Source: an uncultured Pseudomonadota bacterium
GTDB taxonomy: Bacteria; Oederibacteriota; Muellerivitia; Muellerivitales; Muellerivitaceae
DNA length: 64,000 nucleotides
Reading direction: 5' to 3'
Assembly: GCA_963843375.1 (NCBI GenBank)
Contig: CAWJKT010000009.1
Span: 128,001 to 192,000, forward strand
Position numbers and translations under genes: made by a program. The notes under the pieces are model-generated. The model was given only the letters and a program-made list of their open reading frames with translations. It had not been told where the DNA came from and ran no database searches. Positions 7,150-34,209 of this stretch are shown here, piece after piece (positions within the stretch are counted from its first letter, which is position 1; every line of letters starts with the position of its first letter).

Positions 7150-7165
7150 AGGGTTGTCCACGACG

Positions 7166-15222: not shown

Positions 15223-15251
15223 TCTTGTGTTAATAAAATACCGGCTTTGGA

Positions 15252-16422: not shown

Positions 16423-17385
16423 ATGGCACTCGACCTAGAACGTAAATTAGCCCTGTTGACCTTGTTGGCCAAATCCAAGCAATCCTTGGATTGCCGGGAA
16501 ATATTTCAAAACCTACCCACTTTTTATAACGATCAAAAACGCCAGTACAGTTCCACTAAAAAAATGTTCGAGCGGGATAAAGAAGAACTCATCGACGCGG
16601 GGTTTCTTGTCCTGGCCGAACCCATGGAAGTGGACAACGAGTTTCGTTACCGCTTGCATAAACCAGGGGAAATTCTCGACCGTCAATTCACGTTTACGCT
16701 AGAGCAAACCCAAATTCTTCGATCTCTTTTAGAAGACCCGCTATTTGTTGGGCAGGTGCCTGGCATAGCCTTAGCCGCGATCAGCAAATTATTGTCCTTT
16801 CATGGCCGGCTGGATGTGCAGTCTAAAACTATCGCTGCCAGCATTAAAAAAGAAGACCACAACCTAACCTTGGCCCTACAAGCGGGGCAGGTGAGTAAAG
16901 CCATCGAAGTGGAATATCCATCCCATTTGACTGACAAAATGGAACGACGGGTGTTTAGCCCCTACGGAGCCTTTTTGCGCACGGGCAAGACCTATCTAGT
17001 GGTTTGGTGCCATCGAGACCATGTACTGAAGGTTTTAGACATGAAACGCATGGGTACCATTCGCATCGCCCGAGAAAATTACCATGAAGCCCCAGAAGAA
17101 TTGACCATTGAGAATTTTTCCCAAACCCACAACTGGATTAGTGTGGAAGGCCGGGGCCATAAAATTATCCTGAAAGTCAAAGACAGCCAGGCCCATCGGA
17201 TAAAAGAGCATCACCCCTTCGCGGTGACACAAGAAAACCCAGATCATTCCATTTTGGCGGTTTATTTTGTGACCAACCTGCCCCGATATTTTAAATATGT
17301 GCTTTCCTTTGGCCGGGACGCGGAGATTTTAGAACCGCCTGATGTGCGCCAGTCCTTTCTCAAGTTTTTGGTGCAGAACACATGA
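16423..17385 (+). CDS. PafB-like HTH-WYL-WCX transcriptional regulator
   Basis: ERKLALL..KMFERDKEELIDAG (PafB-type wHTH signature MFERDKxEL), RVFSPY..TYLVVWC WYL region, GRDAEILEPPDVR WCX region. Confidence 0.88.
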   Translation: MALDLERKLALLTLLAKSKQSLDCREIFQNLPTFYNDQKRQYSSTKKMFERDKEELIDAGFLVLAEPMEVDNEFRYRLHKPGEILDRQFTFTLEQTQILRSLLEDPLFVGQVPGIALAAISKLLSFHGRLDVQSKTIAASIKKEDHNLTLALQAGQVSKAIEVEYPSHLTDKMERRVFSPYGAFLRTGKTYLVVWCHRDHVLKVLDMKRMGTIRIARENYHEAPEELTIENFSQTHNWISVEGRGHKIILKVKDSQAHRIKEHHPFAVTQENPDHSILAVYFVTNLPRYFKYVLSFGRDAEILEPPDVRQSFLKFLVQNT

Positions 17386-18356
17386 AAACAAAAAAGACCA
17401 AAGTCGATTGGACGGTTTCGCGCATGGTCGGGGTTTTTGCTGCCCTCAAGGAACCGATCAGTGTGGCCGAACTTAAAAAGCGATATGGCATAGGTATGCC
17501 CGAACTTCGCGAACTGGAATACAAAGTGTTAGGCAACGCGGAAGAAACCAGCGCCACAGGCAGTCTTCATTTCAGTTTGGAGTTTCAAACCGAAAACGGC
17601 CAAACCATGGTCAAACTCTTGACCCAACCCATTCTGGCTAAATCCGTTGGGGTATCCCTTGCCGAGGCGCACCTGGCCCAGCAAACTCTTTCCTTGGTCG
17701 AACTGCCTGAACCCCGGCAAAAGGCCTTAAAAGAAATTGTCCAGGCTCTGGGTGCGGCGGTTAAGAAGGGGAAGTATGCCCCGTCTTTGGACTTTTTATT
17801 GACCGCGCCTCATCTCCCATTTTCTGATAAGAACGCCAAACAGTTGGCCCAAGCCGTGCAAGATGAAATGGAAGTGCGATTTCTTTATGGCCGCAAACAA
17901 CAAGCTTGGCGCTATGTGCAGCCCTTTAGCCTGCGGCGGGACCAGGGCGAATGGCGTCTACTGACTTATGACCTAGAGCGTCAGGGGTTGAGGGTGTTTC
18001 TTCTGTCGAAGATCAAGCAGGTCAAGGTGGGCGAAAAGTTTGAATGGCCTCTTCGCTATACCAAAAGCCATATGAAGTCGATGGATTTGAGCCGTTACCG
18101 ACCCAACGGAACTGAAGTTGAAGTTCAAATTAAAATACGAAATCCGGCCTTTGAAAAGTTTCAAAGCCTTTTTCCTTATGTTCACATCGCACAGAAAGAC
18201 CGCGCTTGGAAGAAGTTGTCCATTTATAGCGCTGATCCCCAATGGGTGGCTCGTACCTTTTTATTTGGTTTGGGTGATGTCGAAATATTGGGGCCACCTG
18301 ATTTTAAACAAGCCTGGCTTGCGGAAATTAATGCGGTCAAAGCCCTCTACACCTAA
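17382..18356 (+). CDS. PafC-like WYL-WCX protein
   Basis: ATGA overlap with the preceding WYL gene; RYVQPF..WRLLTYDLERQGLRVFLLSKI; GDVEILGPPDF. Confidence 0.82.
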   Translation: MKTKKTKVDWTVSRMVGVFAALKEPISVAELKKRYGIGMPELRELEYKVLGNAEETSATGSLHFSLEFQTENGQTMVKLLTQPILAKSVGVSLAEAHLAQQTLSLVELPEPRQKALKEIVQALGAAVKKGKYAPSLDFLLTAPHLPFSDKNAKQLAQAVQDEMEVRFLYGRKQQAWRYVQPFSLRRDQGEWRLLTYDLERQGLRVFLLSKIKQVKVGEKFEWPLRYTKSHMKSMDLSRYRPNGTEVEVQIKIRNPAFEKFQSLFPYVHIAQKDRAWKKLSIYSADPQWVARTFLFGLGDVEILGPPDFKQAWLAEINAVKALYT

Positions 18357-18405
18357 ACCCTTTCGTTACCACCATTCCAGCCTTGTCTGTGCCAAACCTT
18401 ATCCT
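18355..18405 (+). promoter_or_regulatory. PafBC-type promoter motif copy 1
   Basis: AAACCCTTT at 18355; TGTCTG(18384)-tgccaaacct-TA-tcc-T. Confidence 0.75.
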
Positions 18406-18434
18406 TTCCTTTCATCAAAAAAAGGGAGGGTTTT

Positions 18435-18929
18435 ATGAATCTGACCAGCCAATTCGAGGAAATATTAGGAAAAAAAGACAACGATACGATGTTCAAGTGG
18501 ATCATGGAAAAGCTTTTGCTGAATCCCGATTCGATTGAGCTACGTGGAATGGCGGCCTTCGCCTTTTTGGTCCTCGATAAAACTTGGGTGGCCCGTGAAA
18601 TGGCTGAGACGGTTTTGAAAGAAAATCCTGACGAGACATGGTCCCTCGCCGCCCTGTTCGGTTCCTACCGGTACGACGATGTCACACGAAACGCCCGCTT
18701 CTTCGAGGATGAGTTTTTTAAACTGGGTCCCGAATGGATTCCCCGGTTCGCCAAAGCCTTCCATGACCAAACCGCCGAAAAGTTAATTTATTGCCTGACA
18801 CTTTACGGCACCCCTGCCCAAAAGTTTCTGTTGCTGGAAAATTACTTGGTTACGCCTGCTGATCCGCCCCTTGGGCAGTTGTCGCTTCCAATTGAGAATC
18901 TACCCAAAGAGCAAAAAAAGCGGAAATAG
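18435..18929 (+). CDS. Hypothetical protein (possibly helical-repeat)
   Basis: 164-aa ORF with RBS GGAGG downstream of motif copy 1. Confidence 0.65.
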   Translation: MNLTSQFEEILGKKDNDTMFKWIMEKLLLNPDSIELRGMAAFAFLVLDKTWVAREMAETVLKENPDETWSLAALFGSYRYDDVTRNARFFEDEFFKLGPEWIPRFAKAFHDQTAEKLIYCLTLYGTPAQKFLLLENYLVTPADPPLGQLSLPIENLPKEQKKRK

Positions 18930-18930
18930 A

Positions 18931-18981
18931 AAAGCCTTTAAAACAGCCATTTATAATCCTGTCCGTACCCGTTCCTATTGT
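18931..18981 (+). promoter_or_regulatory. PafBC-type promoter motif copy 2
   Basis: AAAGCCTTT at 18931; TGTCCG(18960)-tacccgttcc-TA-ttg-T. Confidence 0.78.
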
Positions 18982-19010
18982 AGGGGTGAAAGGGAAAGGA
19001 GGCGGTTTCA

Positions 19011-19256
19011 ATGGGAACACCATGGTTTACTTATGTGGTGGTTTGGGAGTATGACGAAGCCAAGAACACACAAACGGCCATCAAAGCTGAATTTGTTTCA
19101 GATCAAGAAGCGGAACAACTTGAAAAAGAATATCCCTATCCCCGTTACGGTGTAGATGTGTTGAATTCTTCCGACCGGGACGATTGGGGAATTCAGGTGG
19201 GGAGGGTTGAGGAGATGGGTTTCGACCCCTACATCAGTAATGATGCGTTCGATTAA
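19011..19256 (+). CDS. Small acidic hypothetical protein
   Basis: 81 aa, RBS AAGGAGG, D/E-rich. Confidence 0.7.
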   Translation: MGTPWFTYVVVWEYDEAKNTQTAIKAEFVSDQEAEQLEKEYPYPRYGVDVLNSSDRDDWGIQVGRVEEMGFDPYISNDAFD

Positions 19257-19351
19257 AAAGGAGAGGGAAACAAAGTCGTTTGGCGGATTTACCACTTGCC
19301 CCGGCCAAATTCTTGAAAAGGAATCAATAGGGACTAAAAAGGAAAATTAAT

Positions 19352-19843
19352 ATGAGTCACAATATACCGTTTGAAAATTTTGAAAATATTCATCAAGACA
19401 TACCCAGGGCTTTTAGTTTGCACAAGATGAAATTGATCACCTTCGCGTTTATACCAAAACGGTTTGAGGTGTTTGACCGACCGGAGTTGAATGACTTTCC
19501 CCGTAGTATTCTTTTTGCCAATACGGTTCAATTGGGGCGCTATGGCCAGTACCGTTTAAGCCTTTATGAGCCTGATTTATCAACCTATAAGAATTTAAAC
19601 GGCCAACAACAAATGCTTTATCGCAATGCCCACGGCGGAAACAGCCAGGTGAAGGTGCTTCGCCATGTGAAAGGCTATTATTCTGCGGCGAAAGTTTTTG
19701 ACGGGGTTGAAAACGAGTTTGCCTCGGGGGAGAGCTGGAAAAGCTTTTTCCTTTACTTGTCTTTGCTGGGCCGCCACCAGGATGAGGCGGGGGTAGAGGT
19801 GTTGGGTGGTGAGATATTGGATGCTTATCCGCCCAAACCATAG
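19352..19843 (+). CDS. Hypothetical protein
   Basis: 163-aa ORF with AAGGA RBS. Confidence 0.6.
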   Translation: MSHNIPFENFENIHQDIPRAFSLHKMKLITFAFIPKRFEVFDRPELNDFPRSILFANTVQLGRYGQYRLSLYEPDLSTYKNLNGQQQMLYRNAHGGNSQVKVLRHVKGYYSAAKVFDGVENEFASGESWKSFFLYLSLLGRHQDEAGVEVLGGEILDAYPPKP

Positions 19844-19872
19844 GCCGTTATTAAAAATAAGGAGGTGCAAAT

Positions 19873-20346
19873 ATGATCGAATTAGAAGAAGAGAAAACTA
19901 AAAAAATCCTCTACATCGATATGGACGGGGTATTAGTTGATTTTCATTTGGGCATTCAACGGCTGACCAAAGCCGAAGCTCAAGAATACGCCGGTCGGCC
20001 CGAAGATGTTCCGGGCATTTTCGCCCGTATGGACCCCATGCCTGGGGCAGTCGAAGCCTTTGATGTTCTGGCGGATCATTTCGACACCTATATTCTTTCG
20101 ACTTCCCCCTGGGAAAACCCCACAGCCGCCAGTGATAAAGTGAAGTGGGTCAAAAGCTACTTGGGTCCCAAAGCCAAAAAACGACTCATTCTGAGTCACC
20201 ATAAAAACCTCAACCGAGGGCACATCATCATTGATGACCGGTTAAAGCATGGGGTGGATGACTTTCAAGGCGAACATATCCACTTTGGTCAGGGCCAATT
20301 TAAAACCTGGAAAGCGGTATTGAAGTACCTTCTGCCCAAAGCCTGA
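19873..20346 (+). CDS. HAD-superfamily 5'(3')-deoxyribonucleotidase (NT5C-like)
   Basis: YIDMDGVLVDF motif I, ILSTSPW, K, IIIDDR. Confidence 0.85.
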   Translation: MIELEEEKTKKILYIDMDGVLVDFHLGIQRLTKAEAQEYAGRPEDVPGIFARMDPMPGAVEAFDVLADHFDTYILSTSPWENPTAASDKVKWVKSYLGPKAKKRLILSHHKNLNRGHIIIDDRLKHGVDDFQGEHIHFGQGQFKTWKAVLKYLLPKA

Positions 20347-20396
20347 AACCCTTTAAAAGGGCTATTTTGGGCTTTGTCTGTACCCTCTTTTAAGAT
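20346..20396 (+). promoter_or_regulatory. PafBC-type promoter motif copy 3
   Basis: AAACCCTTT at 20346; TGTCTG(20375)-taccctcttt-TA-aga-T. Confidence 0.78.
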
Positions 20397-20430
20397 TTTA
20401 CCCGTTGGTAAATCGAAAAAGGAGGGAGCC

Positions 20431-20514
20431 ATGCATCATGGGATCCTGACAGTTGTATTCATAATGGGGTTTGTTTTGTTCGCCTGTTGTTTGATCGCGG
20501 ATAAAAAAGAATGA
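20431..20514 (+). CDS. 27-aa single-TM peptide (paralogue 1)
   Basis: MHHGILTVVFIMGFVLFACCLIADKKE; RBS AAGGAGG; ATGA overlap with the next gene; paralogue at 34126. Confidence 0.8.
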   Translation: MHHGILTVVFIMGFVLFACCLIADKKE

Positions 20515-20852
20515 AAAAGTCGAACAAAGCGAAGGATCTTCAACGGCTTTTGGATTCCCTCGGGCCTGGGCCAAAGCCACTTCAAGACTATGTAGAAAGA
20601 CGGATTCGGGGCCAGGTTTGCCCCCGGTGCGGGTCAACTCAATTAGCTTATATCCTGCGAGGTTTGCAGGCAATGAACCCCCTTCTCGAAATGTTGATGT
20701 TGGTGGAAAAAGTGGTCTTCGGAGGTTGCATGGTAGGCTCCGGGGACAAAGAGTTATACTGCAACCAATGCGAGATGGAATTTGACCGCCAAAAGTTAAA
20801 TGTCCGAAAATCTATTGAAAAACGAGGGAAACATCTAATTGACTGGGCGTGA
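20511..20852 (+). CDS. Hypothetical Zn-ribbon protein
   Basis: CPRCGS..ILRGL..GGC..YCNQC pattern. Confidence 0.65.
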   Translation: MKKSNKAKDLQRLLDSLGPGPKPLQDYVERRIRGQVCPRCGSTQLAYILRGLQAMNPLLEMLMLVEKVVFGGCMVGSGDKELYCNQCEMEFDRQKLNVRKSIEKRGKHLIDWA

Positions 20853-20984
20853 ATAGAATTTGCTGATATCAAAGGAATTGAGGAATTTGGGTGTAGGGTC
20901 AGGTTAGAATTGGGCAGGTTTAATTAAACAGAAATATTCACTTTATCATTTAGAAACTTATGTTAATAAAGGTCAGGTTAAATA

Positions 20985-23900
20985 GTGAGACATGTTTTTA
21001 TTTCCGATTTGGTTAAAGAGTTACTCGGACCAAGAAATGGCGCAACAGAAAAATTTAAAACTAATATTGATGATCCCCGTAGTGAGTACACCACCGGCCA
21101 GTTGGAGCCCCCAAAAGCAAGTTTGAATGAAAAAGATATAGATAATGAGGACGGATTAGGTGAAGGCACCGCATCGGCAGAGGAAGATAACGAGGATCAA
21201 GTAGCGGGACTTTTAAATCAGGCTTTCATTGGTTCGGGTGAAAATTTCAGAAGAGTACCTTCTTCAATGGGTATTTCATTTGCGATGAATGAAATGCCAC
21301 AAGATGGCGATTTTGATGTGTGTGTAACTTGGGCCAGATACGTAAAAAACGAAGAAGAATGGGTTAGAAATCCTAGTTTTTGGATCGTGAAATTCAAAAC
21401 CGCTTCTTTACAAGAGGGTGTTGTTTCAGAAGATAAAACTTTATCTCTGTCTTACTACATTACGAAACTAGCCACCGGTGAATCCAAAATTTCTATTTAT
21501 TTAAGTTCGTTAATAAAAAAAGAAGACGCGGAGTTTACTCAAACAGAGGAAATAATTTTTCAGCCCGAAATCAGAGTTGTTCTTAAAAACAAAAATTCTC
21601 TTATCGAATTGGGCGATTTGAGTTTTTTTACCGATGATCCTGAATGGCGTATTTCAACTAGGCAATATGATCGTTTTAAAATTTTTGCCCGCGGTCACCT
21701 TTGCGGGGCCTACTGGAAAGACATAGACCCTCAGCGTCCTTATGAAGAGAAAATAAAACTAAACCCAGATTTACCTTTTAAGTGGATCGATGGCCTTCAT
21801 TTTTTAAGTACCAACCCTCAATTAGGACCATTTATTTATTCAGACTTACGAACGGATTTCATCCCCTTATATTCCTCGCCAGAAGCGGATAGTGGTTTGA
21901 AATTAGAACTTTATGCGGACTTAATCGCGAGCTGTGAAAATTTTGAGGCGTTAAAAAATATTCTCGAACCAATAATTATCGAATATGAAAATTGGGTCAA
22001 TCAAATTAAGGATGATGCGGCCACTAAAGAAATTGACGGCGAAATAATCAGAAGACATAAAGAGGCGATTGATAGAGTTAAGAAAGGTTTGCTTTTTATT
22101 AACAAAGACAAAGATGCCTTTTTGTCATTTTTATTTATGAATAAAGTGATGGCGAAACAATATTCATGGGGACGACAAGAAGATAAAAAAATGCGTTGGA
22201 GGCCATTCCAGCTTGTTTTTATTTTGTTGGCGCTAGAATCGACAGTTAATAAGGATTCTTCAGAACGTGAAATATGTGACACTATTTGGTTTCCTACAGG
22301 TGGCGGAAAAACAGAAGCTTATTTGGGGTTGGCCGCGTTTGCTTTGGCTTATCGACGCCGTACATCAGATACAGAATCAGATGGTTCAAAATCAGGTGAG
22401 GGTACTTGTGTTATTAGTCGCTACACTTTGCGTCTGTTAACAATTCAACAATTTAGACGCGCCTCAAAAATGATCATGGCTTGCGAAATTTTGCGTTGTG
22501 AGACTTCGAAAAGCGATTTTATTGGTTGGATGCCAAAAAGCTATGCAAATCAAACCGGTTTTGTTTGGGGCAGAACGCCATTTTCTATAGGTCTTTGGGT
22601 TGGAGGTGGTGTCACACCTAATGGGATGGAAGGTGCTGGCTTTAAGGACATACCACCGGGAGCAATTCATTTGTTGAACAAACCAGCACAAGATGATGGT
22701 CCGGATCCAGCCCAAATTATAAATTGTCCATGTTGTAATAGTGTTTTGTCGTTCCCATCAGACGGTATTTCCAGTGGTTCGTTAACATTAAAATTAATTA
22801 CAAATAAGAAGCCAATAGGTGTTGATCTTGAGAATTCAATTTCTAACGATAATTTCAAGGTCAGCAAAATAAGCTTTACACCTCATATTTCAAATGTATG
22901 TGGTTATTTAAAAATTGATATGGTTTTGACTTCCCCCGCAAAAGCCCTTGATATACATGAATGGTGGGTAAATGTAGCCGGTCCTACTTTGGGCGTTCAA
23001 CTATTATCATTTAATGCCTCTCGGCCTGGTTATTTTGGTATCCAAGGTGGATTACACGGAAAAATCACTGATTATGAAATTCGTTGTCCGGATCAGACAT
23101 GTGAGATTAACGCTGAATTTTATAAATTCAAACAACCTGGTACGGGTAGGGATTGGGAATATTCTTTAACACATCCAAGTTTTTCGTTACCGAGAGATCC
23201 CCATACTTCCAAAGGTTTGTGTATATCAGCTGAGACAGTTGACGAAAAACTTTATTCGTATCCACCATCGCTGCTCATTTCAACAGTTGATAAATTGGCT
23301 GGAATGGCATTTACGAATGAATCCGCGGCTTTATTTGGGCGTGTGCGAACGTTTTCATCGAAAAATGGCTTCTCTCAAGAAAACTCATCAAAAATAAAAG
23401 TTCTTCAATTTCAAACACCTTGGCTGATTATTCAAGATGAATTACATCTATTAGATGGACCGCTTGGCTCATCATTTGGTTTGTTTGAAACGGCGATTGA
23501 AGCTCTTTGTGATAAACCGAAATATATTGCCTCTTCGGCCACAATTAGAAACTCACTTGAACAAGTTAATTGTCTGATGGGGAGAAAAAGTAAAGTTTTT
23601 CCACCGGTTAATGTTGACGTAGGCGATGGCTTTTTTTTGAAGTTAAAAGAAGAGCATCCGCTAAAGGAAGACAAGCCAGGCCGTTTATTTATGGGTCTCG
23701 CGTTTCCTGGTAGAGCGCCTCAACGGCCTACAGCCCGTGTTTGGGGAAGACTTTTACAAACGGCACAAGATCAATTGAAAATAGTTGAGGAAATATCAGA
23801 TGAAAAGGTAAAAGCGGACACGCTTAGCGTTCTGGATAATTATTGGACTTTGATTGGTTATTTTAATGCTGTTCGTGAATTGGCGCAGGCAGAAACTCTT

Positions 23901-24761
23901 TACCGACAAGACATGCCAAATTATTTAGATAGATTAATGCGACAAAATCCAAATTCGATCAAGCGTGATTTAGATTCATCAAAGTTTAGAAATCTTTCAA
24001 GTCAAACGCGATCAAGTGATTTGCCTGGGTATTTATCAAAAATGGAACTCACAATTAACCATGTCGATTCATTAACAGCGGTCGCTTCAACTTCTATGTT
24101 TGGGACAGGGGTTGATATATCTAGACTTTCTTTAATGGTCGTTCACGGCCAACCAAAGTCAGCGTCACAATATATTCAAGCTGTGGGTCGCATAGGACGT
24201 GAAAGAGCGGGACTTGCTGTTGTTTTTTTCAGGGTTTCAAAACCAAGGGATTTGAATCACTATGAATATTTCACTGGTTATCATAGAAAATTGGCCGTAG
24301 CGGTTGAACCCATCACAGTAAAACCCCTTGCCCCTAAAGCATTAGATAGGACAATTGGACCCTTATTAGCGGTTTTACTTAGAAACTGGAATTTATCAAA
24401 ACCAGAAGTGCCGAAAGACATCGATTTAGATGTGAATGGCGGTCTTGTTACGATGTTAAATTCCGAAATATTAAATAAATTTCAAGAGATATTTAATCGC
24501 AAATGGGATCAGCAAACACCAGAACGACGACCATATCCGGACAAAAAACAATTTTTGAATTTCATTATTTCTCAAATTCAACGTTGGCAGGAATTCGCAA
24601 GGCGTCAGACTGAAAAAGGGAATGTTCTTAAATACAAGCCGGACAATAAAGCTGAGATTGTGGTTTTAGGTAGCGATAATTCAAACAGTGCGGTGTTTAC
24701 GAATGTGCCGCGATCACTTAGGGAAGTTGAGCCAATGATAAATCTCTCGGTTAGTAAATAA
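20985..24761 (+). CDS. drmA: DISARM helicase DrmA
   Basis: WRPFQL, WFPTGGGKTEAYLG, RYTLRLLTIQQF, IIQDELHL, SSAT, GVDISRL, YIQAVGRIGR; followed by DUF1998 and PLD genes. Confidence 0.92.
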   Translation: MRHVFISDLVKELLGPRNGATEKFKTNIDDPRSEYTTGQLEPPKASLNEKDIDNEDGLGEGTASAEEDNEDQVAGLLNQAFIGSGENFRRVPSSMGISFAMNEMPQDGDFDVCVTWARYVKNEEEWVRNPSFWIVKFKTASLQEGVVSEDKTLSLSYYITKLATGESKISIYLSSLIKKEDAEFTQTEEIIFQPEIRVVLKNKNSLIELGDLSFFTDDPEWRISTRQYDRFKIFARGHLCGAYWKDIDPQRPYEEKIKLNPDLPFKWIDGLHFLSTNPQLGPFIYSDLRTDFIPLYSSPEADSGLKLELYADLIASCENFEALKNILEPIIIEYENWVNQIKDDAATKEIDGEIIRRHKEAIDRVKKGLLFINKDKDAFLSFLFMNKVMAKQYSWGRQEDKKMRWRPFQLVFILLALESTVNKDSSEREICDTIWFPTGGGKTEAYLGLAAFALAYRRRTSDTESDGSKSGEGTCVISRYTLRLLTIQQFRRASKMIMACEILRCETSKSDFIGWMPKSYANQTGFVWGRTPFSIGLWVGGGVTPNGMEGAGFKDIPPGAIHLLNKPAQDDGPDPAQIINCPCCNSVLSFPSDGISSGSLTLKLITNKKPIGVDLENSISNDNFKVSKISFTPHISNVCGYLKIDMVLTSPAKALDIHEWWVNVAGPTLGVQLLSFNASRPGYFGIQGGLHGKITDYEIRCPDQTCEINAEFYKFKQPGTGRDWEYSLTHPSFSLPRDPHTSKGLCISAETVDEKLYSYPPSLLISTVDKLAGMAFTNESAALFGRVRTFSSKNGFSQENSSKIKVLQFQTPWLIIQDELHLLDGPLGSSFGLFETAIEALCDKPKYIASSATIRNSLEQVNCLMGRKSKVFPPVNVDVGDGFFLKLKEEHPLKEDKPGRLFMGLAFPGRAPQRPTARVWGRLLQTAQDQLKIVEEISDEKVKADTLSVLDNYWTLIGYFNAVRELAQAETLYRQDMPNYLDRLMRQNPNSIKRDLDSSKFRNLSSQTRSSDLPGYLSKMELTINHVDSLTAVASTSMFGTGVDISRLSLMVVHGQPKSASQYIQAVGRIGRERAGLAVVFFRVSKPRDLNHYEYFTGYHRKLAVAVEPITVKPLAPKALDRTIGPLLAVLLRNWNLSKPEVPKDIDLDVNGGLVTMLNSEILNKFQEIFNRKWDQQTPERRPYPDKKQFLNFIISQIQRWQEFARRQTEKGNVLKYKPDNKAEIVVLGSDNSNSAVFTNVPRSLREVEPMINLSVSK

Positions 24762-24763
24762 TT

Positions 24764-26578: not shown

Positions 26579-27126
26579 TGGAAAGAAATTACGATGAAAT
26601 GCCGCAAATATTAGTAACCGGGCGATATTGGTTGGGTGTGGCAGGTGCGCGTTTAATTGGCGCTGAAGTCATTGATATGATTAATTCGGCAAAAAGGGAA
26701 ATCATAATTGTTGCGTATCGCTTAACAATCTCTGTTAACGAAATTAATCAAGCGCTCGAGAAAGCATTGGAACGTGGTTGTAATGTGCGAATTATTCGTA
26801 ATGGTGCCGATCAGATAGTCCGATCCGAGGAAAATTATTTAGAAAATCTTTTAACGAAATACACAACGTTATCAGTTTGGGATTTTAAAGAGACTGATGC
26901 GCAAATGTTTGGTATTGCACTTCACGCAAAAATGATAATTGTTGATAGGAAGGTTGCGGTAGTGGGATCAGCTAACTTTTCTAGAAACGGAATGATAGAA
27001 AATCATGAAATTGCCGTGCGATTATCGGGACCTGAAGTTAAGTCATTAGGTATGGCTTGTGAAGAGTTGTTAAAGAACGGTCGTAGTGATGGTGTTGTGA
27101 CTCAATGGAAGAAAAAAGATGTCTAG
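26578..27126 (+). CDS. drmC: DISARM phospholipase D-family nuclease DrmC
   Basis: LHAKMIIVD..VGSANFS..NHE HKD motif; position after drmB. Confidence 0.88.
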   Translation: MERNYDEMPQILVTGRYWLGVAGARLIGAEVIDMINSAKREIIIVAYRLTISVNEINQALEKALERGCNVRIIRNGADQIVRSEENYLENLLTKYTTLSVWDFKETDAQMFGIALHAKMIIVDRKVAVVGSANFSRNGMIENHEIAVRLSGPEVKSLGMACEELLKNGRSDGVVTQWKKKDV

Positions 27127-29506
27127 GTCATGGCATCTTGAAGCTAAATTTAACGAAAATTTATTTTCCTTAAATTGGACAGCTGATTCGACAAAACTCC
27201 TTCTAAATTTATTCAAGTATTTAGATTCAGCAAATAAACCGATATTAACAATGCTACCCCCTAATGTGAGTCCGGCCGCTGCCGCTGTTGTGGCTTCTTT
27301 GTATTTTCTGCCTGGTATGTCTAAACCACCTGAACCTCATTGCCGCATTGCTTTGTATCCAGGCTTACATTTTGTAAATCAATTAAAAGAAATTGCGTTT
27401 AAGGCGAATGATTTAACTGAAGCTGCGAGAATTTGCCGATTAATGGGTAAAGGCTCACCGAGGTTAAATGGCCCCTTAGAGAAACTTGGGGAACCGATTT
27501 ATAAAAGCATTGACGTTAATTATCATTGGATATTTAAGACCGCAAGAGTTTGGGATTTAAATTTTAAAAAACAAGAACGTATATTTTCACCACGCGGAAA
27601 TAATCATTATCATTTTGGTAAAAATGATCTTTACGATTCTTCGATCGACCTTTTTTTAACTGATCGTCTTGATTCAATCGTCGATAACAAAAAGCCATAC
27701 GACTTATTAATTTACTGTCCATCATTCCATTCTACGACATTGAGTCAGTCGGATGCGGACATTGATAACACGTTGAAAAAAGTTTTAACATTTCCAGCGG
27801 ATCGCAAATTAATTGTAGTTCGTAGTCCTTACGACCATTGGGCGTATTCTCTTGAAAAAAAGATGAAAATCGAAGGTATAGGTTTGTCATCACAAGTTAG
27901 TGCCGATAAAACGGAGGTTACTAATCGCAAAAACTTAACCTTTAAAATAGTCGACCAAATAATAAATCTGGAAGAGGCATTTGTACTATTTGATGAAATT
28001 AGAAAAATTTCTAAGAAACCTGAAACGAATAAGATTTCGCTAAATGAATTGCGCCGCATATTAAAAAGACTTTTGGTCGGTCTTGATCCTAAATATTTCG
28101 ATGATGTTTATCAGTTCGAAGACTTACCAGGACTAATTGAAAGGTTTGTGGATTCTGTAAATATGACCAAAGAATCTCTGGCATGGAAGGTAATAGATAA
28201 GATTAAAACCTCAATAATTTCTGGGAATTTGGTTACCAAAGTCGATGAAATTCGAGAAATTTGTGGTTCTGAAAAAGTGGAGGTTTGGGTAACAAAAGAA
28301 TTGGATAGACGAATAATTGAAGAGACGGTGGAGACAAACCAACTTGATACTAAAGTTAAGTTAGCGGACAGGTGGTTAACGCCTGGTGCGGATGAGTCGA
28401 ATAGATCAGTATTACTTTCACGAATCGATCGTGAGGTTGATTTGAATTTAGTTGCGTATTTAAAACCAGGGGATTTAATTGTAATGACAGCTTGGGAGGC
28501 GGTATTAAAGGGTTATGCGGAAAATGGTGGCAGATCTTCAATATTGAAATCATGGGAAAGATCAGAAAAATGGCGCCAACACGCTAACAATATAGGTATT
28601 ACACCTTTTGAAGTGGGTGTTACGTATGCGGATCCTGTATTAGATTTGGCTAATTATTTAGAATCTATACTTTCAACTTTAAATAATAAAACATTAAACG
28701 ACAAATCCGTGGTGATGGAAGAAGAGAAAAGTTGGTGGGATGAAGCGAATAATGAATCAGCTTATGAAACGGCTTTGGATCGTGCACAAGCGGTTGAGAA
28801 AACGGGCGACAATACTTATTTATGTAAAGAGGTGCTTTTTGATGGTGGATTAGGCATGTTTGTTCGCGAAGATGATGAATTCCAAATCATCTCCGAGGAG
28901 GAAGATGGTGCTGAAATATCACTAATTCCGGTAAAAAACTTAAGAGTTGGTATGATTGTGTTGCTTTTTAAAGACACTGAAAGAAATTCATTATTTGATC
29001 TGTTAATGGATCAATTGGAAAGATCCCCCCAGTATCAAACGGATGTACGGGTTGTAAAAGATTGGAAAGCAAAACTGAAAGCCCATGTACGGTTGAATAA
29101 TTTAAAAATCTCAGAAATAAAAGGTATGTTACGTTTAAGAAATAAGGCGTTCGATCATTTTACAATTCGATCTTGGGTATTTGGTTCCACAATGGCTCCG
29201 CAACATAAGGAAAACCTTGTTCTACTTGTAAAGGCTTTAGGTTTAAATACCGTTAAACCGGATGTTGTTTTTAGAAGTGTTAAGAATTTACGTTCAATCG
29301 CTATAACCCTTGGCAGAGCATTAAATCAAGTAATACTGCGCAAAGATTCGGATAAAATTGATGCCAGCGTTAAAGAAGCGCTCTTAGATGCCGGCATCGA
29401 TTTTGAAGAGCTTTCTGATGTTGTAGAGCCAAAATCGGTTATAAGTGTAACCCCCCAAAGCTTAGAAATTGAGGGAAGAAAGATACGTAAATTGTTTAAA
29501 GTATAA
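27119..29506 (+). CDS. drmE: DISARM class II DrmE-like protein
   Basis: 795 aa, overlaps drmC and lies between drmC and a C5 methyltransferase. Call rests mainly on size and context. Confidence 0.65.
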   Translation: MSRSWHLEAKFNENLFSLNWTADSTKLLLNLFKYLDSANKPILTMLPPNVSPAAAAVVASLYFLPGMSKPPEPHCRIALYPGLHFVNQLKEIAFKANDLTEAARICRLMGKGSPRLNGPLEKLGEPIYKSIDVNYHWIFKTARVWDLNFKKQERIFSPRGNNHYHFGKNDLYDSSIDLFLTDRLDSIVDNKKPYDLLIYCPSFHSTTLSQSDADIDNTLKKVLTFPADRKLIVVRSPYDHWAYSLEKKMKIEGIGLSSQVSADKTEVTNRKNLTFKIVDQIINLEEAFVLFDEIRKISKKPETNKISLNELRRILKRLLVGLDPKYFDDVYQFEDLPGLIERFVDSVNMTKESLAWKVIDKIKTSIISGNLVTKVDEIREICGSEKVEVWVTKELDRRIIEETVETNQLDTKVKLADRWLTPGADESNRSVLLSRIDREVDLNLVAYLKPGDLIVMTAWEAVLKGYAENGGRSSILKSWERSEKWRQHANNIGITPFEVGVTYADPVLDLANYLESILSTLNNKTLNDKSVVMEEEKSWWDEANNESAYETALDRAQAVEKTGDNTYLCKEVLFDGGLGMFVREDDEFQIISEEEDGAEISLIPVKNLRVGMIVLLFKDTERNSLFDLLMDQLERSPQYQTDVRVVKDWKAKLKAHVRLNNLKISEIKGMLRLRNKAFDHFTIRSWVFGSTMAPQHKENLVLLVKALGLNTVKPDVVFRSVKNLRSIAITLGRALNQVILRKDSDKIDASVKEALLDAGIDFEELSDVVEPKSVISVTPQSLEIEGRKIRKLFKV

Positions 29507-29560
29507 TTAGTATCTTGACTTTCAAGACAGAAAATAAATTTCCAGGAATTTGTAAATTAA

Positions 29561-30823
29561 ATGAAAAAAAGAGTTTTATCCCTTTTCTCCGGCTGTGGTG
29601 GAATGGATTTAGGTTTTGAAGGCGACTTCAATGTTTTGAAACGTTCTGTTGGCGAAATGTTTTTATTAACCAATAAAATTTCAAACACTAAAGATAAATG
29701 GGTTCACTTACCAAAAACTTCCTTTGAAACAGTCTTTTCAAATGACATTCTTCGAGGCGCTAAGGCGGCCTGGATTCCATATTTTAAAACCCATAGACAC
29801 AGCAAAGGTGAGTTTCACCTTGGTAGCATTGTTGACTTAGTAAAGGCTTTTAGAGCAGGAAATAAGAGTGTCTTCCCAGCTAGCATAGACGTAGTCACGG
29901 GCGGGTTTCCATGTCAGGATTTTAGTTTGGCTGGCAAAAGAAAAGGTTTCAATTCACACAAAGGGCACCATGGCGGTTTATTAACGGAAGCTGATGAGGC
30001 AAAGGAAGAAAACCGCGGCAAGCTTTATATGTGGATGAAAGATGTGGTTGATATTACTCGACCAAAAATGTTCATAGCTGAAAACGTAAAAGGTTTAGTG
30101 AGCTTAGAGAATGTTAAGCAAATTATTGAGGATGATTTTCGAAAAATAGGTGGCGGGGGATATGTGGTTGTTCCGGCGCGAGTATTACATGCTGCTAATT
30201 ATGGTGTTCCGCAAACAAGAGAAAGAGTTTTGTTTTATGGCTTTAAGCGTTCCGCGTTAAAGGCTGAAGCTTTAAAAGCCTTAACTTCTAAATCTGTTCC
30301 GGGTGAATACGATCCATACCCAGTAGCTACCCATAAAAGCAGCGCTAATCGTAGCGAGTTAATAACTGAGATGGATTTATTGCCAGTTGTAACTATTAAA
30401 GAAGCTTTAGCTGGATTGCCAGAACCGGAAGTGGCAAAAGAAGAGTCTCAAAAATGGTATTCAAAAGCAAAATACTACGGCCCGCATTTACAGGGGCAAA
30501 TTGAAGTTGATCCCAATAAACCTGGTCCCACGATTAGATCTGAACATCACGGGAATATTGAGTTCCGCCGTTTGGCAAAGAATCATGGTGGGAAGAACCT
30601 TGACGAATTGAACAAGGGCCTAAAAGAGCGTCGTTTAACTGTTCGCGAGTGTGCCAGAATTCAAACATTTCCAGACGACTACGAATTCGTTCGTAAAAAT
30701 GGCGAAAACCCTATTAGTTCTTCAGAAGGTTATAAGGTTATAGGGAATGCTGTGCCGCCGCTCTTGGCTTATCATGTAGCTGCTCGTTTAGAAAAATTAT
30801 GGCCTAAATTATTTAGGAGCTAA
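29561..30823 (+). CDS. DNA (cytosine-5)-methyltransferase (DrmMII-like)
   Basis: LFSGCGG, GGFPCQDFS, ENV, QTRERV, RECARIQTFPD, GNAV. Confidence 0.96.
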   Translation: MKKRVLSLFSGCGGMDLGFEGDFNVLKRSVGEMFLLTNKISNTKDKWVHLPKTSFETVFSNDILRGAKAAWIPYFKTHRHSKGEFHLGSIVDLVKAFRAGNKSVFPASIDVVTGGFPCQDFSLAGKRKGFNSHKGHHGGLLTEADEAKEENRGKLYMWMKDVVDITRPKMFIAENVKGLVSLENVKQIIEDDFRKIGGGGYVVVPARVLHAANYGVPQTRERVLFYGFKRSALKAEALKALTSKSVPGEYDPYPVATHKSSANRSELITEMDLLPVVTIKEALAGLPEPEVAKEESQKWYSKAKYYGPHLQGQIEVDPNKPGPTIRSEHHGNIEFRRLAKNHGGKNLDELNKGLKERRLTVRECARIQTFPDDYEFVRKNGENPISSSEGYKVIGNAVPPLLAYHVAARLEKLWPKLFRS

Positions 30824-30825
30824 TC

Positions 30826-31899
30826 ATGGTTTTTGGGACAAATCCAGAAGCGGATGCGAAAGAGTTTGAAGGTGTTTTGAAAAAGGGGCTAACTCTTTTG
30901 ACGGGCGATGCTGAGGCGAATGTTAAACACTTCATGGGTGAAAGTTCCTCGAATTTTGAGGAGATGGTTTATGAAGCCTTAAAAAAATCGGCCATTGGCA
31001 CCAATTTTGAAAACTACATTGAAATGGTTACAGGACATAAATTTCCAGACATTGTGTTTAACAATCGCTTTTACGGTGTTGAGGTTAAAAGCTTAAAACA
31101 CGATGGATGGAGTACCTTTGGTAATAGTATTTTTGAGAGCACCAGAGTCAAAAATATAGATCGTATCTATATTTTGGCGGGTAGATTGTCTGACCCGATT
31201 GAGTTTCGCTATAAAAAATACGAAGAATGTATCGACGACATTCAAATAACTCACTCACCTCGTTATCACATTGATATGGATGTAAAAGCAAAAGACACGA
31301 TTTTTACCAAAATTGGCCAAACCTATGACGAGTTTCGGAAATTAGAAAACCCACTTGGCCCATTGCGTGAATATTACAGGTCAAAACTAAAACCCGGAGA
31401 AGGTTTGTGGTGGCTTGAAAACGATGTGGAGAAAATTGGCAACAATAATTTAGTTGTGAAGGTTCTGAATGATTTGCCAGACGATGAACGAGAAGAAATA
31501 ATGATTGAAGGATTCGCGAGGTTTCCAAAACTTCTAAGCACTGACCAAAGTCGATATAAGAAATTCGCGACATGGTTAATTGTTGAGCATGGGCTTGTCT
31601 CGCACAATGTTAGGGACTTTTTTACAGCGGGCGGCCAAGAAGAAATCAAAGTAGGGGGCAAAACATATTTTGAAGTACCTCAAATTTTTTGGAGTCTGCA
31701 AGGTCGTATTAAGAAAATAAAAAAAGAAGTTGAGAAATTAAAACCGATCACCATTGTTGAAAATTGGGAAATTGAGGATAAATACAACCCGAAGAAATTT
31801 GAAACTTGGGTTGATTTAGTTGAAAGCCATTCTAAAAAGAAGTTGGAGAAATGTGGATTGCCGTTACGCAAAATGATTATGGATGAGTTGAAAAAATAA
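30826..31899 (+). CDS. Putative type II restriction endonuclease (PD-(D/E)xK)
   Basis: FPDIV..GVEVKS catalytic motif; located between the C5 MTase and vsr. Confidence 0.72.
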   Translation: MVFGTNPEADAKEFEGVLKKGLTLLTGDAEANVKHFMGESSSNFEEMVYEALKKSAIGTNFENYIEMVTGHKFPDIVFNNRFYGVEVKSLKHDGWSTFGNSIFESTRVKNIDRIYILAGRLSDPIEFRYKKYEECIDDIQITHSPRYHIDMDVKAKDTIFTKIGQTYDEFRKLENPLGPLREYYRSKLKPGEGLWWLENDVEKIGNNNLVVKVLNDLPDDEREEIMIEGFARFPKLLSTDQSRYKKFATWLIVEHGLVSHNVRDFFTAGGQEEIKVGGKTYFEVPQIFWSLQGRIKKIKKEVEKLKPITIVENWEIEDKYNPKKFETWVDLVESHSKKKLEKCGLPLRKMIMDELKK

Positions 31900-31909
31900 A
31901 GGTTGATAG

Positions 31910-32320
31910 ATGCGGACTAAAGAAATTACTTATCGAATAATGTCCGCCATAAAATCAAAAAACACCCGCCCCGAAAAACTGTTTGAAAAAGAATTAAGAA
32001 AATCAAAAATTAAGTACAAGAAGCATTATCCAATTGAAGGTAAGCCTGATTTTGTTATTTTTAATAAGAAAATTGCCGTGTTTATCGATGGTGATTTTTG
32101 GCATGGCAACAATTGGCGCCTACGGGGGTTTAAAAATCGAGCTCAAGAACTCAAAAGTTATAAGAAGTTTTGGTCAGATAAAATTAAAAATAATGTCGCG
32201 AGAGACAACAAAACAAACAAGAATTTAAGGAAAAAAGGTTGGGTCGTTTTGCGCTTTTGGGAACATGAGCTCAAAATTGATCCTTTCAAATGTTTGATTA
32301 AGTTGAAAAAGGCTTTTTAA
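31910..32320 (+). CDS. vsr: Very short patch repair endonuclease
   Basis: MSAIKSKNTRPE, GKPD, FIDGDFWHG, NVARD, GWVVLRFWE. Confidence 0.94.
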   Translation: MRTKEITYRIMSAIKSKNTRPEKLFEKELRKSKIKYKKHYPIEGKPDFVIFNKKIAVFIDGDFWHGNNWRLRGFKNRAQELKSYKKFWSDKIKNNVARDNKTNKNLRKKGWVVLRFWEHELKIDPFKCLIKLKKAF

Positions 32321-32401
32321 TAAATCTTTGTTTTATTAGAGTTTGCGCGTATACTTTTTAAGGGAATAATTATTGAAAAATAGCAAGGTTGGTAAGAGGT
32401 C

Positions 32402-32713
32402 ATGAAAAAACTGAAAGAAGCAAAAAGATTCAAGGTCACAATTGATGACAAAAATACTTTTATTGCTTGGACTTTTAGCGAGAAGTGGAACGAATGGTCT
32501 GAGCCTTATTTTGAAAAAAGCGAAGCTGATAAGGTTGCCAAGATTCATGACTGTAAATACAACCCCGAAAATGATTCTTATGAATTTGAGCAAAACGGTG
32601 ATGTGGAAGAATTCGAGGGAATTGAAATTAAAACCATAGAAGGTATCAAAAAGGTTTACGCAATTGGTGTGGGTTCATGGGTTTGGGATGAAGCCGAATC
32701 AGTTGAAAATTAA
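32402..32713 (+). CDS. Acidic hypothetical protein
   Basis: 103 aa, RBS GAGG; WNEW..PYF and YAIG..WVW motifs. Confidence 0.65.
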   Translation: MKKLKEAKRFKVTIDDKNTFIAWTFSEKWNEWSEPYFEKSEADKVAKIHDCKYNPENDSYEFEQNGDVEEFEGIEIKTIEGIKKVYAIGVGSWVWDEAESVEN

Positions 32714-32744
32714 ATTGATTACACTAAATTAGGGGTATAAATTT

Positions 32745-33017
32745 ATGAGTCAATACATATGGAAAACTGAAAAATATGAATTTAAAACTGGTTGGGATCG
32801 ACCGTTAGAATATTATTTTTTGGTGATAGAACACATTAATCAAAAGAAAAAGAAGAAAGCTCCTGTATTTTCCAACCTTGAAATTCTTACCGGTCCCGGA
32901 ATGACTCTTGAAGAAATCGAAGAAACTTGTTTACGTTATGTTTCAGCGTTGCCATCAGATATAAAAATGGCCTTACAAAACGATAAAATCAAACAGTCTT
33001 TGGAGTTGTTCATTTAA
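32745..33017 (+). CDS. Hypothetical protein
   Basis: 90 aa, GWDRPLEYYFLVI motif. Confidence 0.55.
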   Translation: MSQYIWKTEKYEFKTGWDRPLEYYFLVIEHINQKKKKKAPVFSNLEILTGPGMTLEEIEETCLRYVSALPSDIKMALQNDKIKQSLELFI

Positions 33018-33347
33018 ACCAGTTCCAATGACTTCAAGAGAATTTTTGTAAACGGGTTCTGTGGTGGTTTATAGGCCTTATGAATCGAGAATTCTTAAAG
33101 AAACCGCTGAATTTTTACCTAAGTTCAAAACCCCACTATACGTAATCATCAAACGCTTTAAGGACTTGCTGATACCCTTTCGTAATCAGAGTGTGCTTTA
33201 ACCGGAATTTAACGGTTCCGCCAGTCTCAAATCCTTCTTGCCTGTGTTGGTGCCCAACATGAGTTATGACTATTTGGAGATTGGTGAGGGAATATGATAA
33301 AATACCGTTAACGAATAATTTAAAAACCACGCTAACCTTAGGTGCGC

Positions 33348-33911
33348 ATGGAAAATATCTTTTCTTTAAACTACCCAGAGTACGCAACCATCAATCGAAT
33401 CAGCAAGATTTTAAAAGGAACTGGTTATTCGGCTTTTATTCCCGTAAGTAGGCAGCAAAAGGGCGTTGATTTTATTCTTCAAAACAACAAGAAGCCAAAT
33501 CATACGGTGCGATTTCAAGTCAAGAGTTCCAAAGTTTACCCAGAAAACAAACTAAAAACGTTCAATAACAAAAAAGAATATGGTTTGACTTTATGGTTTA
33601 ACAATTTCATTAATTCCGGGCAATATGAAAAAGGAAATTCTGATTATTATCTGTTTTTCGGCGTTTACCCAATTTTCACGAAATACACCACCAAAAAATC
33701 CAGAAAATTAAACGATTGGAAAGAAATACTTCTGTGCTTTAAAGAAGAGTATCTCTTTTCCCATATCAAAGAGAATGAACGATTTTTATATATCCATTTC
33801 AGCCTGAATGAAAATGGAAACGTTTCTGACGTTCTGGCGACCAGAGGGTTTAAAGAACATACGGACGTAACCGACTATTTAATTGAAAATCAACTTAAAG
33901 AGATTCTCTAG
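33348..33911 (+). CDS. Putative PD-(D/E)xK nuclease
   Basis: PEY..KGVDFIL..RFQVKSS (D...QxK variant). Confidence 0.55.
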   Translation: MENIFSLNYPEYATINRISKILKGTGYSAFIPVSRQQKGVDFILQNNKKPNHTVRFQVKSSKVYPENKLKTFNNKKEYGLTLWFNNFINSGQYEKGNSDYYLFFGVYPIFTKYTTKKSRKLNDWKEILLCFKEEYLFSHIKENERFLYIHFSLNENGNVSDVLATRGFKEHTDVTDYLIENQLKEIL

Positions 33912-34034
33912 GTATCGTCTGAATATTGCAGTCTTCAATTTCTTTGTATCTACTTCTAATTTCATTAAAAGCGTTGGCCGAATATACGGGGTAGCATATC
34001 TTTTGGATCAAAATTCTAAATAAGGAAAAAGCTT

Positions 34035-34086
34035 AAACCCCTTACTTTCCACCCAATCTAGCCCTGTCCGTACCATCCCCTAATCT
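34035..34086 (+). promoter_or_regulatory. PafBC-type promoter motif copy 4
   Basis: AAACCCCTT at 34035; TGTCCG(34065)-taccatcccc-TA-atc-T. Confidence 0.78.
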
Positions 34087-34125
34087 ATAAACGTATAAAA
34101 ATCAAAAAGAAGAGAGGTGGTCCCA

Positions 34126-34209
34126 ATGCATCATGGAATTTTTGGTTTATTCGTGGTTTTGGTTCTTGTGTGCGTTTTCGCTGCTATTTTCTCCGGTAAA
34201 AAGGAGTAA
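34126..34209 (+). CDS. 27-aa single-TM peptide (paralogue 2)
   Basis: MHHGIFGLFVVLVLVCVFAAIFSGKKE; RBS GAGGT; same length and termini as the 20431 peptide. Confidence 0.8.
   Translation: MHHGIFGLFVVLVLVCVFAAIFSGKKE

Follow-up and report, generated by a model that had tools for sequence, protein, structure and literature searches.

The sequence analyzed here, which we call the window, is a stretch of 64,000 nucleotides (nt) from contig CAWJKT010000009.1 of assembly GCA_963843375.1 (positions 128,001 to 192,000), the genome of an uncultured bacterium of candidate division FCPU426. Within it lies a low-GC island that carries two overlapping genes for WYL-domain regulators resembling the mycobacterial factor PafBC, together with four copies of a promoter-like motif, each ahead of an open reading frame (ORF). 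An initial annotation, made from the sequence alone, had described this arrangement as a PafBC-like pair with its own local regulon inside a defense island. Based on the analysis that followed, we consider it probable that the pair is a PafBC-type activator carried by the island, and that it controls a cassette-like regulon of local reach whose promoters combine a -26 with a -10 element and lack a -35 element. The pair, the four sites, and the units behind them are arranged as follows.

16423..17385, + strand: gene 1, a PafB-like protein of 320 amino acids (aa) with winged helix-turn-helix (wHTH), WYL and WCX domains (Pfam WYL and WCX above cut-off; family profile; structure model)
17382..18356, + strand: gene 2, a PafC-like WYL-WCX protein of 324 aa (Pfam WYL; WCX below cut-off; family profile)
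18384..18405, + strand: promoter-like site 1, TGTCTGTGCC-aaacct-TATCCT, 29 nt to the ATG at 18435
18435..18929, + strand: unit 1, behind site 1, X165, a 164-aa all-helical protein resembling tetratricopeptide repeat (TPR) proteins, with homologues behind the same motif
18960..18981, + strand: promoter-like site 2, TGTCCGTACC-cgttcc-TATTGT, 29 nt to the ATG at 19011
19011..20346, + strand: unit 2, three genes behind site 2
19011-19256, + strand: unit 2, 81-aa ORF, no family match
19352-19843, + strand: unit 2, 163-aa ORF, no family match
19873-20346, + strand: unit 2, NT5C-type 5'(3')-deoxyribonucleotidase (Pfam NT5C, expectation value (E) 1.6e-16; PHROG deoxyribonucleotidase, 1.3e-10)
20349..20361, + strand: terminator-like hairpin CCCTTTAAAAGGG and then a T-rich run, a consensus match only, between the nucleotidase gene and site 3
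20375..20396, + strand: promoter-like site 3, TGTCTGTACC-ctcttt-TAAGAT, 34 nt to the ATG at 20431
20431..20514, + strand: unit 3, 27-aa hydrophobic peptide MHHGILTVVFIMGFVLFACCLIADKKE, with a strong ribosome-binding site and a stop codon that overlaps the next ATG
20511..20852, + strand: unit 3, 113-aa zinc-ribbon protein, coupled to the 27-aa peptide
34065..34086, + strand: promoter-like site 4, TGTCCGTACC-atcccc-TAATCT, 39 nt to the ATG at 34126
34126..34209, + strand: unit 4, behind site 4, a second 27-aa hydrophobic peptide, MHHGIFGLFVVLVLVCVFAAIFSGKKE, of the same design as that of unit 3

Relationship of the pair to PafBC

The stop of gene 1 and the start of gene 2 share a 4-nt ATGA overlap (17382-17385), and the two are the only WYL genes in the assembly. 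The earlier description of two coupled WYL-WCX genes, the first with the PafB-type motif MFERDK, was borne out by this overlap, by the Pfam matches and by the sequence KKMFERDK, which all 15 aligned relatives of gene 1 share unchanged; the WCX match of gene 2 falls below the cut-off, and the domain appears in all 11 members of its family at E up to 1. As single sequences, genes 1 and 2 matched PafC and PafB of Mycobacterium smegmatis weakly (E 1e-3 to 1e-2). A 15-sequence profile of gene 1 gave E 1.3e-35 for the PafB half of the fused Arthrobacter PafBC (6sj9) and 1e-26 for M. smegmatis PafB (7p5x_AY) over residues 3 to 317, with weaker matches to PafC (2e-14) and, in the WYL-WCX part only, to DriD (6e-9), CapW (4e-6) and BrxR (4e-4). 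An 11-sequence profile of gene 2 gave full-length matches, with 4.5e-25 for residues 348-657 of 6sj9, its PafC half, and 6.5e-17 for M. smegmatis PafC (7p5x). It aligned to PafC from residue 11-12 onward, while its match to PafB was partial (2.2e-11). Among characterized WYL regulators, gene 1 therefore appears nearest to PafB and gene 2 nearest to PafC, and these full-length profile matches uphold the PafBC-like identity that had been proposed for the pair.

The order of the genes also follows that of PafBC (6sj9, 7p5x, 9fnd), with two adjacent paralogous wHTH-WYL-WCX genes, B then C, and the recognition helix carries MFERDK. R46 and R50 of M. smegmatis PafB are reported to read the GTC triplet of the target (PMC8635444), and in the profile alignment their equivalents are the invariant K47 and R51 of KKMFERDK in gene 1, so that, unlike in PafBC, the position of R46 is taken by a lysine.

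Relatives of the pair are rare: in a word-based search of 5.8 billion clusters, gene 1 had 18 and gene 2 had 3, and a search of viral contigs for related loci gave no relative. For comparison, we utilized 99 genomes of candidate phylum FCPU426; loci are numbered with L and genomes with G (L003 corresponds to G044, L004 to G054 and L034 to G070). The relative with a 94% identical gene 1 belongs to candidate division FCPU426 and to the same family as the window's genome, so that the host is not actinobacterial, as the earlier view had it. Family searches also agreed that the window has no pafA, pup or proteasome gene; Pup ligase had no match in the assembly, and the one weak Proteasome-family match there (28.5 bits), for which the control search also matches E. 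coli, we infer to be HslV-like.

Promoter-like sites and the genes behind them

The pattern TGTCYGTRCCNNNNNNTANNNT (TGTCYGTRCC-N6-TANNNT) has four matches in the window, with TGTC at 18384, 18960, 20375 and 34065 and all on the + strand, and none in 100 dinucleotide shuffles of the window. Across the whole assembly (4,051,312 bases in 32 contigs, 80% complete with 4% contamination), the window's four sites were the sole matches. The 10-mer TGTCYGTRCC occurs 13 times genome-wide and is followed by TANNNT at the right spacing in 4 of these, all in the window; the loose form TGTCNGT-N9-TANNNT occurs 18 times, by our estimate about the number expected by chance. When 8.1 million positions were scored with a weight matrix derived from eight sites, the window's four sites reached 25-32 bits and the next best position 19.5. 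The frequency of the strict motif is thus above chance, with four copies against none in the shuffles and no further strict match in 4.05 Mb.

All four sites are intergenic and lead, through a purine-rich ribosome-binding site, to an ATG 29, 29, 34 and 39 nt past TANNNT, so that the pattern scan agrees with the initial annotation on four copies of equal spacing, each followed by a ribosome-binding site and an ORF. The motif is non-palindromic and spans the -28 to -19 region of each promoter. At the -35 position, sites 1 to 4 have CAGCCT, TAATCC, GGGCTT and TAGCCC, none of them TTGACA-like, and the TG of an extended -10 element is absent at all four. The in vivo consensus of PafBC is given as tGTCgg(N10)tA(N3)T, in promoters that likewise have a -26 and a -10 element and lack a -35 element (PMC8635444); the window's sites share with it the non-palindromic 22-nt form and the spacing, and differ in having a pyrimidine at position 5 and in the addition of GTRSC at positions 6-10.

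These features bear on whether the pair could instead be a repressor of the CapW/BrxR type, which would sit on the TGTC element and block RNA polymerase until a ligand releases it. The WYL regulators studied beside defense systems, CapW (of cyclic oligonucleotide-based antiphage signaling systems, CBASS) and BrxR (of bacteriophage exclusion systems, BREX), are reported to repress (PMC9122588, PMC11662680, PMC9122601), and the site does overlap -28 to -19 of each promoter. The window's pair resembles them in being of wHTH-WYL-WCX type and in its neighborhood, which here is a defense island system associated with restriction-modification (DISARM) and a restriction-modification module, and in a relative is a CBASS operon downstream of the pair. 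However, CapW and BrxR are single-gene homodimeric repressors with a palindromic operator at their own promoter, and the similarity to them is limited to the WYL domain (4e-6 and 4e-4, versus 1e-26 to 1e-35 for PafB). Here, the element is non-palindromic, there are two different subunits, and the weight-matrix scan found no site upstream of the two regulator genes. Because they have neither a -35 nor an extended -10 element, the promoters should be weak without an activator, which also counts against repression. We therefore judge the repressor quite improbable.

Behind site 1, X165 found no family match in Pfam, PADLOC, PHROG or other family searches. A search of its model (predicted local distance difference test score, pLDDT, 83) against the PDB returned generic TPR matches only, the best at E 0.08, and an ESM Atlas search gave only TPR-like leads. 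These weak, generic matches point to no specific function for X165.

The peptides behind sites 3 and 4 are the only ones of their design in the assembly, and the two sites share this MHH-peptide cassette; in unit 3, the layout runs from MHHG through a hydrophobic core to DKKE. TisB and DinQ of E. coli are SOS-induced small membrane toxins. The 27-aa peptides resemble these by description only, as very short hydrophobic peptides behind a putatively damage-responsive promoter, and differ in that the promoter here is predicted to be of activator type. The stretch 20852-20985, from unit 3 to drmA, showed no terminator-like site, and transcription from site 3 may for this reason read through into DISARM.

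Conservation of the motif beside related pairs

The initial annotation had suggested looking for the motif beside homologous WYL pairs in other genomes, and it was found at L003, L004, L011 and L034, with a variant in G036. L003 has three sites on the gene strand in the same places as the window. L004, of the window's genus and with a 49% identical pair, has two on the gene strand: one, TGTCCGTGCC-N6-TAAGGT, stands ahead of a small ORF, a patatin gene and a cGAS/DncV-like nucleotidyltransferase (CD-NTase) gene, and the other, with CATGAT as its -10 element, lies just past the pair and ahead of an FtsZ-like gene. At L011 (37%), one site precedes an FtsZ-like gene and one an X165 homologue. L034, from another genus, has four, ahead of a 46-aa membrane peptide, a member of the X165 family, a protein of 140 aa whose C-terminal segment is hydrophobic, and a paralogue of the latter. 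Four pattern matches occur in G058 (38%), one of them 40 nt ahead of an X165 homologue on another contig and one on the same strand as the pair and 13.4 kb further downstream, ahead of a 140-aa membrane protein. The variant of G036, TGTCC[CT]TGG-N7-TANNNT, is present in exactly two places in that genome, both directly past the pair and each ahead of a small membrane peptide. In the high-GC pairs L015 and L016 (26% identical), no site was found; the second gene of L016 carries HTH_PafC, and there is no pafA nearby. Eleven metagenome contigs (L006-L010, L012-L014 and L017-L019; 1-4.3 kb) have flanks too short for the motif test. As a separate observation, G037 has four matches and no control matches to TGTCCYTGG-N7-TANNNT and no close pair by profile search; a more distant regulator may use this variant site.

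The 14 sites from six genomes (four in the window and ten in relatives) give the consensus gCCn-TGTCCGTGSC-N6-TANNNT, in which T1, G2, T3, C4, G6, T7, A18 and T22 are invariant; none of the sites has a -35-like hexamer, and all of them agree with the earlier statement that the spacing equals that of the PafBC consensus with a pyrimidine at position 5. In the five genomes with a close pair, TGTCYGTRSC-N6-TANNNT has 18 matches against none for the reversed-pattern control; the other 94 genomes have 38 matches. X165 homologues occur at L003, L004, L011 (two copies), L034 and in G058, standing behind the same motif in L011, L034 and L040 and within the FtsZ-like operon in L004. Strong X165 matches are confined to exactly the five of 99 genomes that have the close pair, and X165, close pair and motif enrichment thus coincide in the same five; since the X165 profile was built from those genomes, its absence elsewhere is the informative part. 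By these comparisons, X165 appears to be conserved, and to be the most conserved member of the putative regulon. The view of the regulon as local was sustained, with four sites that all lie within the island, are exclusive to it genome-wide, and recur beside pairs in relatives.

The genes behind the relatives' sites extend the range of cargo. The FtsZ/tubulin-like genes at L004:11980-13475 and L011:11996-14299 are truncated (308-328 aa versus 392 aa for the host FtsZ frame), share 49% identity with each other, and adjoin X165 homologues; such a gene could be an inducible poison of cell division. A search of the window finds no island FtsZ-like gene, only the host ftsZ. DriD of Caulobacter is described as an activator of the WYL type that responds to single-stranded DNA (ssDNA) and whose outputs include DidA, a small membrane protein that blocks division (PMC9186387). 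The relatives' sites ahead of truncated FtsZ-like genes in L004 and L011 suggest a similar output, whereas DriD is a homodimer with the site CGAC-N7-GTCG (as quoted in PMC12392091) and the window has no FtsZ-like gene of this kind.

At L004:18737-20943 and L036:1-945, the promoter element stands directly ahead of a small ORF, a patatin phospholipase gene and a gene for a DncV-like CD-NTase. As predicted from the sequence, this would be a CBASS operon in a sister species under a PafBC-type promoter instead of a CapW repressor. Defense genes near the relatives' pairs comprise CBASS, GmrSD and helicase-nucleases. The initial annotation had expected a set of unknown small effectors rather than repair genes; no site precedes a repair gene, as it had proposed, but the restriction to small effectors did not hold in view of X165, the FtsZ-like genes and the patatin/CD-NTase CBASS operon of relatives.

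Comparison with L003 also indicates how the units may be exchanged. Identity to L003 is 96-100% up to about 20411, with all three unit-2 genes 97-99% identical, and then drops to 54-60%, the zinc-ribbon protein of unit 3 being 54% identical to its counterpart; from this collapse, we place a break between the two islands directly behind site 3. Downstream of the break, L003 has a DUF2779 gene and a helicase-MZB protein in place of DISARM. Metagenome contigs of at least 90% likeness diverge at 18350, 19023, 20353 and 20424, which is a lead only, as they may come from several strains, and one unmatched contig end retains TTGTCCGTAC.

This clustering of break points at the sites, together with the peptide cassette common to sites 3 and 4, is what would be expected if the motif were a mere conserved head of duplicated cassettes, such as a recombination joint or the promoter of another factor, unlinked to the WYL pair. 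Such a head would hardly be expected to keep its sequence and spacing beside pairs that are 37-49% identical and have unrelated flanking DNA, to match the published PafBC consensus position for position, or to be enriched only in genomes that carry a pair, and we regard it as very improbable. A role as cassette joint is compatible with a role as promoter. Combining the two, we tentatively put forward, as a possible though doubtful extension, a cassette system addressed by its activator: each cargo cassette would open with the same PafBC-type promoter, cassettes would be swapped by recombination at or beside it, and one nucleic-acid-sensing heterodimer would place an open-ended, exchangeable set of effectors (membrane peptides, dNMP (deoxynucleoside monophosphate) phosphatase, truncated FtsZ, CBASS, perhaps DISARM) under a single alarm for infection or damage.

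Island setting and proposed mechanism

The low-GC island holds, besides the block described above, a serine recombinase, ArdC, RadC, an insert with NYN and HTH genes, DISARM, and a C5 methylase module. The features around the block are as follows.

9160-10005: serine recombinase
13023-13979: ArdC, directly upstream of the pair region together with RadC
13994-14413: RadC
15982..16401, + strand: membrane-anchored zinc-ribbon ORF, 139 aa from ATG, with an N-terminal hydrophobic stretch and CxxC...CxxH
20985..29506, + strand: DISARM genes drmA, drmB, drmC and drmE (PADLOC DrmA, E 0; DrmB, 5.7e-161; DrmC, 9.5e-37; Pfam DrmE_C, 5.3e-22)
29561..32320, + strand: C5 cytosine methylase, type II restriction enzyme-like protein and Vsr
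34252..36767, - strand: insertion sequence (IS) IS21 with istA and istB (Pfam IstB_IS21 and Mu-transposase C domain) and 29-nt terminal inverted repeats at 34252-34280 and 36739-36767

The zinc-ribbon ORF at 15982..16401 stops 21 nt ahead of the pair and may be co-transcribed with it; it has no Pfam or PHROG match. A fragment with 66% identity to it stands directly ahead of the G070 pair, and the G054 island has a copy with 48% identity at another place. A class 2 DISARM system comprises a drmMII methylase besides the four drm genes seen here. The C5 methylase that follows drmE scored 1.5e-74 as a type II restriction-modification methylase versus 1.9e-35 as DrmMII, and DISARM may share or borrow its methylase from the type II module (29561-32320). 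IS21 starts 43 bp past the unit-4 peptide and cuts off whatever stood behind site 4. Directly after it comes the 3' end of a response-regulator gene (to 36953), homology to the sister species begins exactly at the IS end (36768), and other IS copies lie on contigs C4 and C19; this junction may be an insertion into the response-regulator gene or an assembly join through the repeated IS. 

Other observations concern the wider window. A group II intron reverse transcriptase/maturase gene (7607-8983, in the region 7149-9123) has 94% DNA identity to a copy in G070, of another genus, far above its surroundings, which points to a recently moving retroelement. An NYN-domain gene and a small HTH gene (14614-15958, - strand) are missing from contig L010, which matches both sides; they form a 1.3-kb insertion, possibly a toxin-antitoxin-like pair. 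The region 39700-46428 encodes a sensor kinase of 2242 aa, which combines 13-14 HAMP repeats with GAF, HisKA/HATPase and three receiver domains; many genes for single receiver domains lie around it. Several housekeeping genes at 60550-63752 seem to be split or short (methionyl-tRNA synthetase at 62303-62533 and 62682-63752, the DNA polymerase III delta-prime region, and thymidylate kinase), and these splits may be assembly frameshift errors.

The ArdC-RadC block is kept in G054 at 75-81% DNA identity, where pair and cargo differ, and the sequences on either side of the window's island fall on a different G054 contig, so that the two species of the genus have the island at different places in the chromosome. 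From this we conclude that it is mobile, in line with the portable system that the initial annotation had envisaged. Mobility also invites the reading that the pair is no phage sensor but an entry or establishment switch of the element, fired once in a new host when ssDNA at arrival, or replication after excision, turns on the cargo promoters. Leading regions of conjugative elements, which are expressed early, typically carry ArdC and RadC, and here the pair follows directly behind both. A serine recombinase is encoded at 9160-10005, and the block persists in G054 while pair, cargo and location change, all of which speak for such a switch. On the other hand, no relaxase or type IV secretion gene was seen among the window genes, and the CBASS and small membrane peptides of relatives fit infection-triggered defense better, making a switch dedicated to establishment rather unlikely. 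The two roles are compatible, and the same sensor could serve both.

For the preferred reading, a PafBC-type activator of a local regulon, the mechanism, in analogy to mycobacterial PafBC, would run as follows. The two subunits would act together as a heterodimer, in which the PafB-like HTH would read the GTC of the -26 element TGTCYGTRSC, 6 nt upstream of the TANNNT -10 element, and through this complex the housekeeping sigma factor would be adapted to promoters that are otherwise silent. The pair would be switched on when its WYL/WCX domains bind a nucleic-acid signal; the likeliest one is ssDNA, arising during phage replication, from DNA damage or on DNA entry. As outputs, the pair would control X165 (unit 1), the 81-aa and 163-aa ORFs with the dNMP phosphatase (unit 2), a peptide and a zinc ribbon, perhaps with DISARM (unit 3), and the second peptide (unit 4). 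The 27-aa membrane peptides may be damage- or infection-induced effectors of growth arrest or abortive infection, and the nucleotidase may deplete the dNMP pool.

Several observations weigh against this activator. No motif was found in the 3.4 kb downstream of the G039 pair, in the 3 kb at the G018 pair or within 10 kb of the G058 pair, and the profile matches in the five genomes are partly circular, as the profiles were made from their sequences. The assembly is 80% complete, and further sites could exist. In contigs from RNA libraries, gene 2 and the 81-aa and 163-aa ORFs are covered only in part, with possible DNA carry-over; the two peat metatranscriptome runs contained just 5-6% of sampled words, and the contigs come in pieces (17279-18039, 19184-19634 and parts of 31.7-32.9 kb) with no start or strand information, for which reason we did not use them as evidence of expression, and stretches without coverage carry no weight either way. 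Pfam HTH_PafC, the PafC-type HTH that in PafBC makes contact with sigma region 4, is undetected in the window's gene 2 and present in 2 of the 11 family members, although the family profile does align to PafC from residue 11-12 onward. The initial annotation had proposed structure prediction of the heterodimer; for a model of gene 1 (pLDDT 78), the best Foldseek match was PafB of 9fnd (9fnd_X, 1.8e-13), but DriD was close behind it (1e-12), and a search with the modeled fold alone cannot separate the two.

A further point concerns the ligand. R211 and R214 of PafB, which correspond to the pair R201 and R204 of PafC, are described as essential for ssDNA binding (PMC11804915). Their equivalents are D206 and R209 in gene 1 and L207 and K210 in gene 2, so that, unlike in PafBC, the first arginine is missing in both subunits; because one arginine of the pair is replaced in each, ssDNA as ligand is not assured, and the ligand may differ. 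The first WYL arginine is also replaced in DdaA of Moraxellaceae, yet DdaA is reported to respond to DNA damage (PMC12392091).

DdaA is also a close functional parallel, as it is described as a WYL activator that directly controls anti-phage genes and the damage response (PMC12392091). It differs in being a chromosomal homodimer with the palindrome-like site CGWCA-N5-TGWCG that replaces SOS genome-wide (PMC12392091), whereas the window has a heterodimer-type pair, a PafBC-type site and a purely local regulon, and a LexA gene lies in the host assembly elsewhere than the window. RecA was not found in the assembly, which at 80% completeness is not evidence of absence. In our literature search, no paper came up that places a pair of the PafB/PafC type on a mobile island or has one controlling defense genes, the closest being those on DdaA, CapW, BrxR and SiwR.

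In the literature on PafBC itself (PMC6789036, PMC8635444, PMC11804915), it is treated as the master switch of DNA repair, encoded on the chromosome of mycobacteria and other actinobacteria; we saw nothing there that limits it to this group. In contrast, the host here is of candidate division FCPU426, the pair sits on a mobile defense island away from pafA and proteasome genes, and its sites are four local ones, compared to approximately 150 genes, none ahead of a repair gene. The pair thus belongs with PafBC in architecture, subunit homology and promoter grammar, and departs from it in proteasome linkage, the global repair regulon and the arginine pair. Judged from these sequence comparisons, it appears to be an activator of PafBC type that has been put to new use as the local switch in a mobile defense island, the new element being the local, cassette-like regulon. 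The two-subunit design and promoter grammar are found here in a candidate phylum, on the mobile island of a peat-bog bacterium, and seem wired to island cargo only. If this is true, sigma adaptation extends beyond Actinobacteria, defense islands can be switched on by an activator and not merely freed from repression of the CapW/BrxR type, and the motif would serve as a practical tag by which to trace unknown effectors of inducible type in uncultured bacteria, X165, truncated FtsZ and the 27-aa peptides among them.

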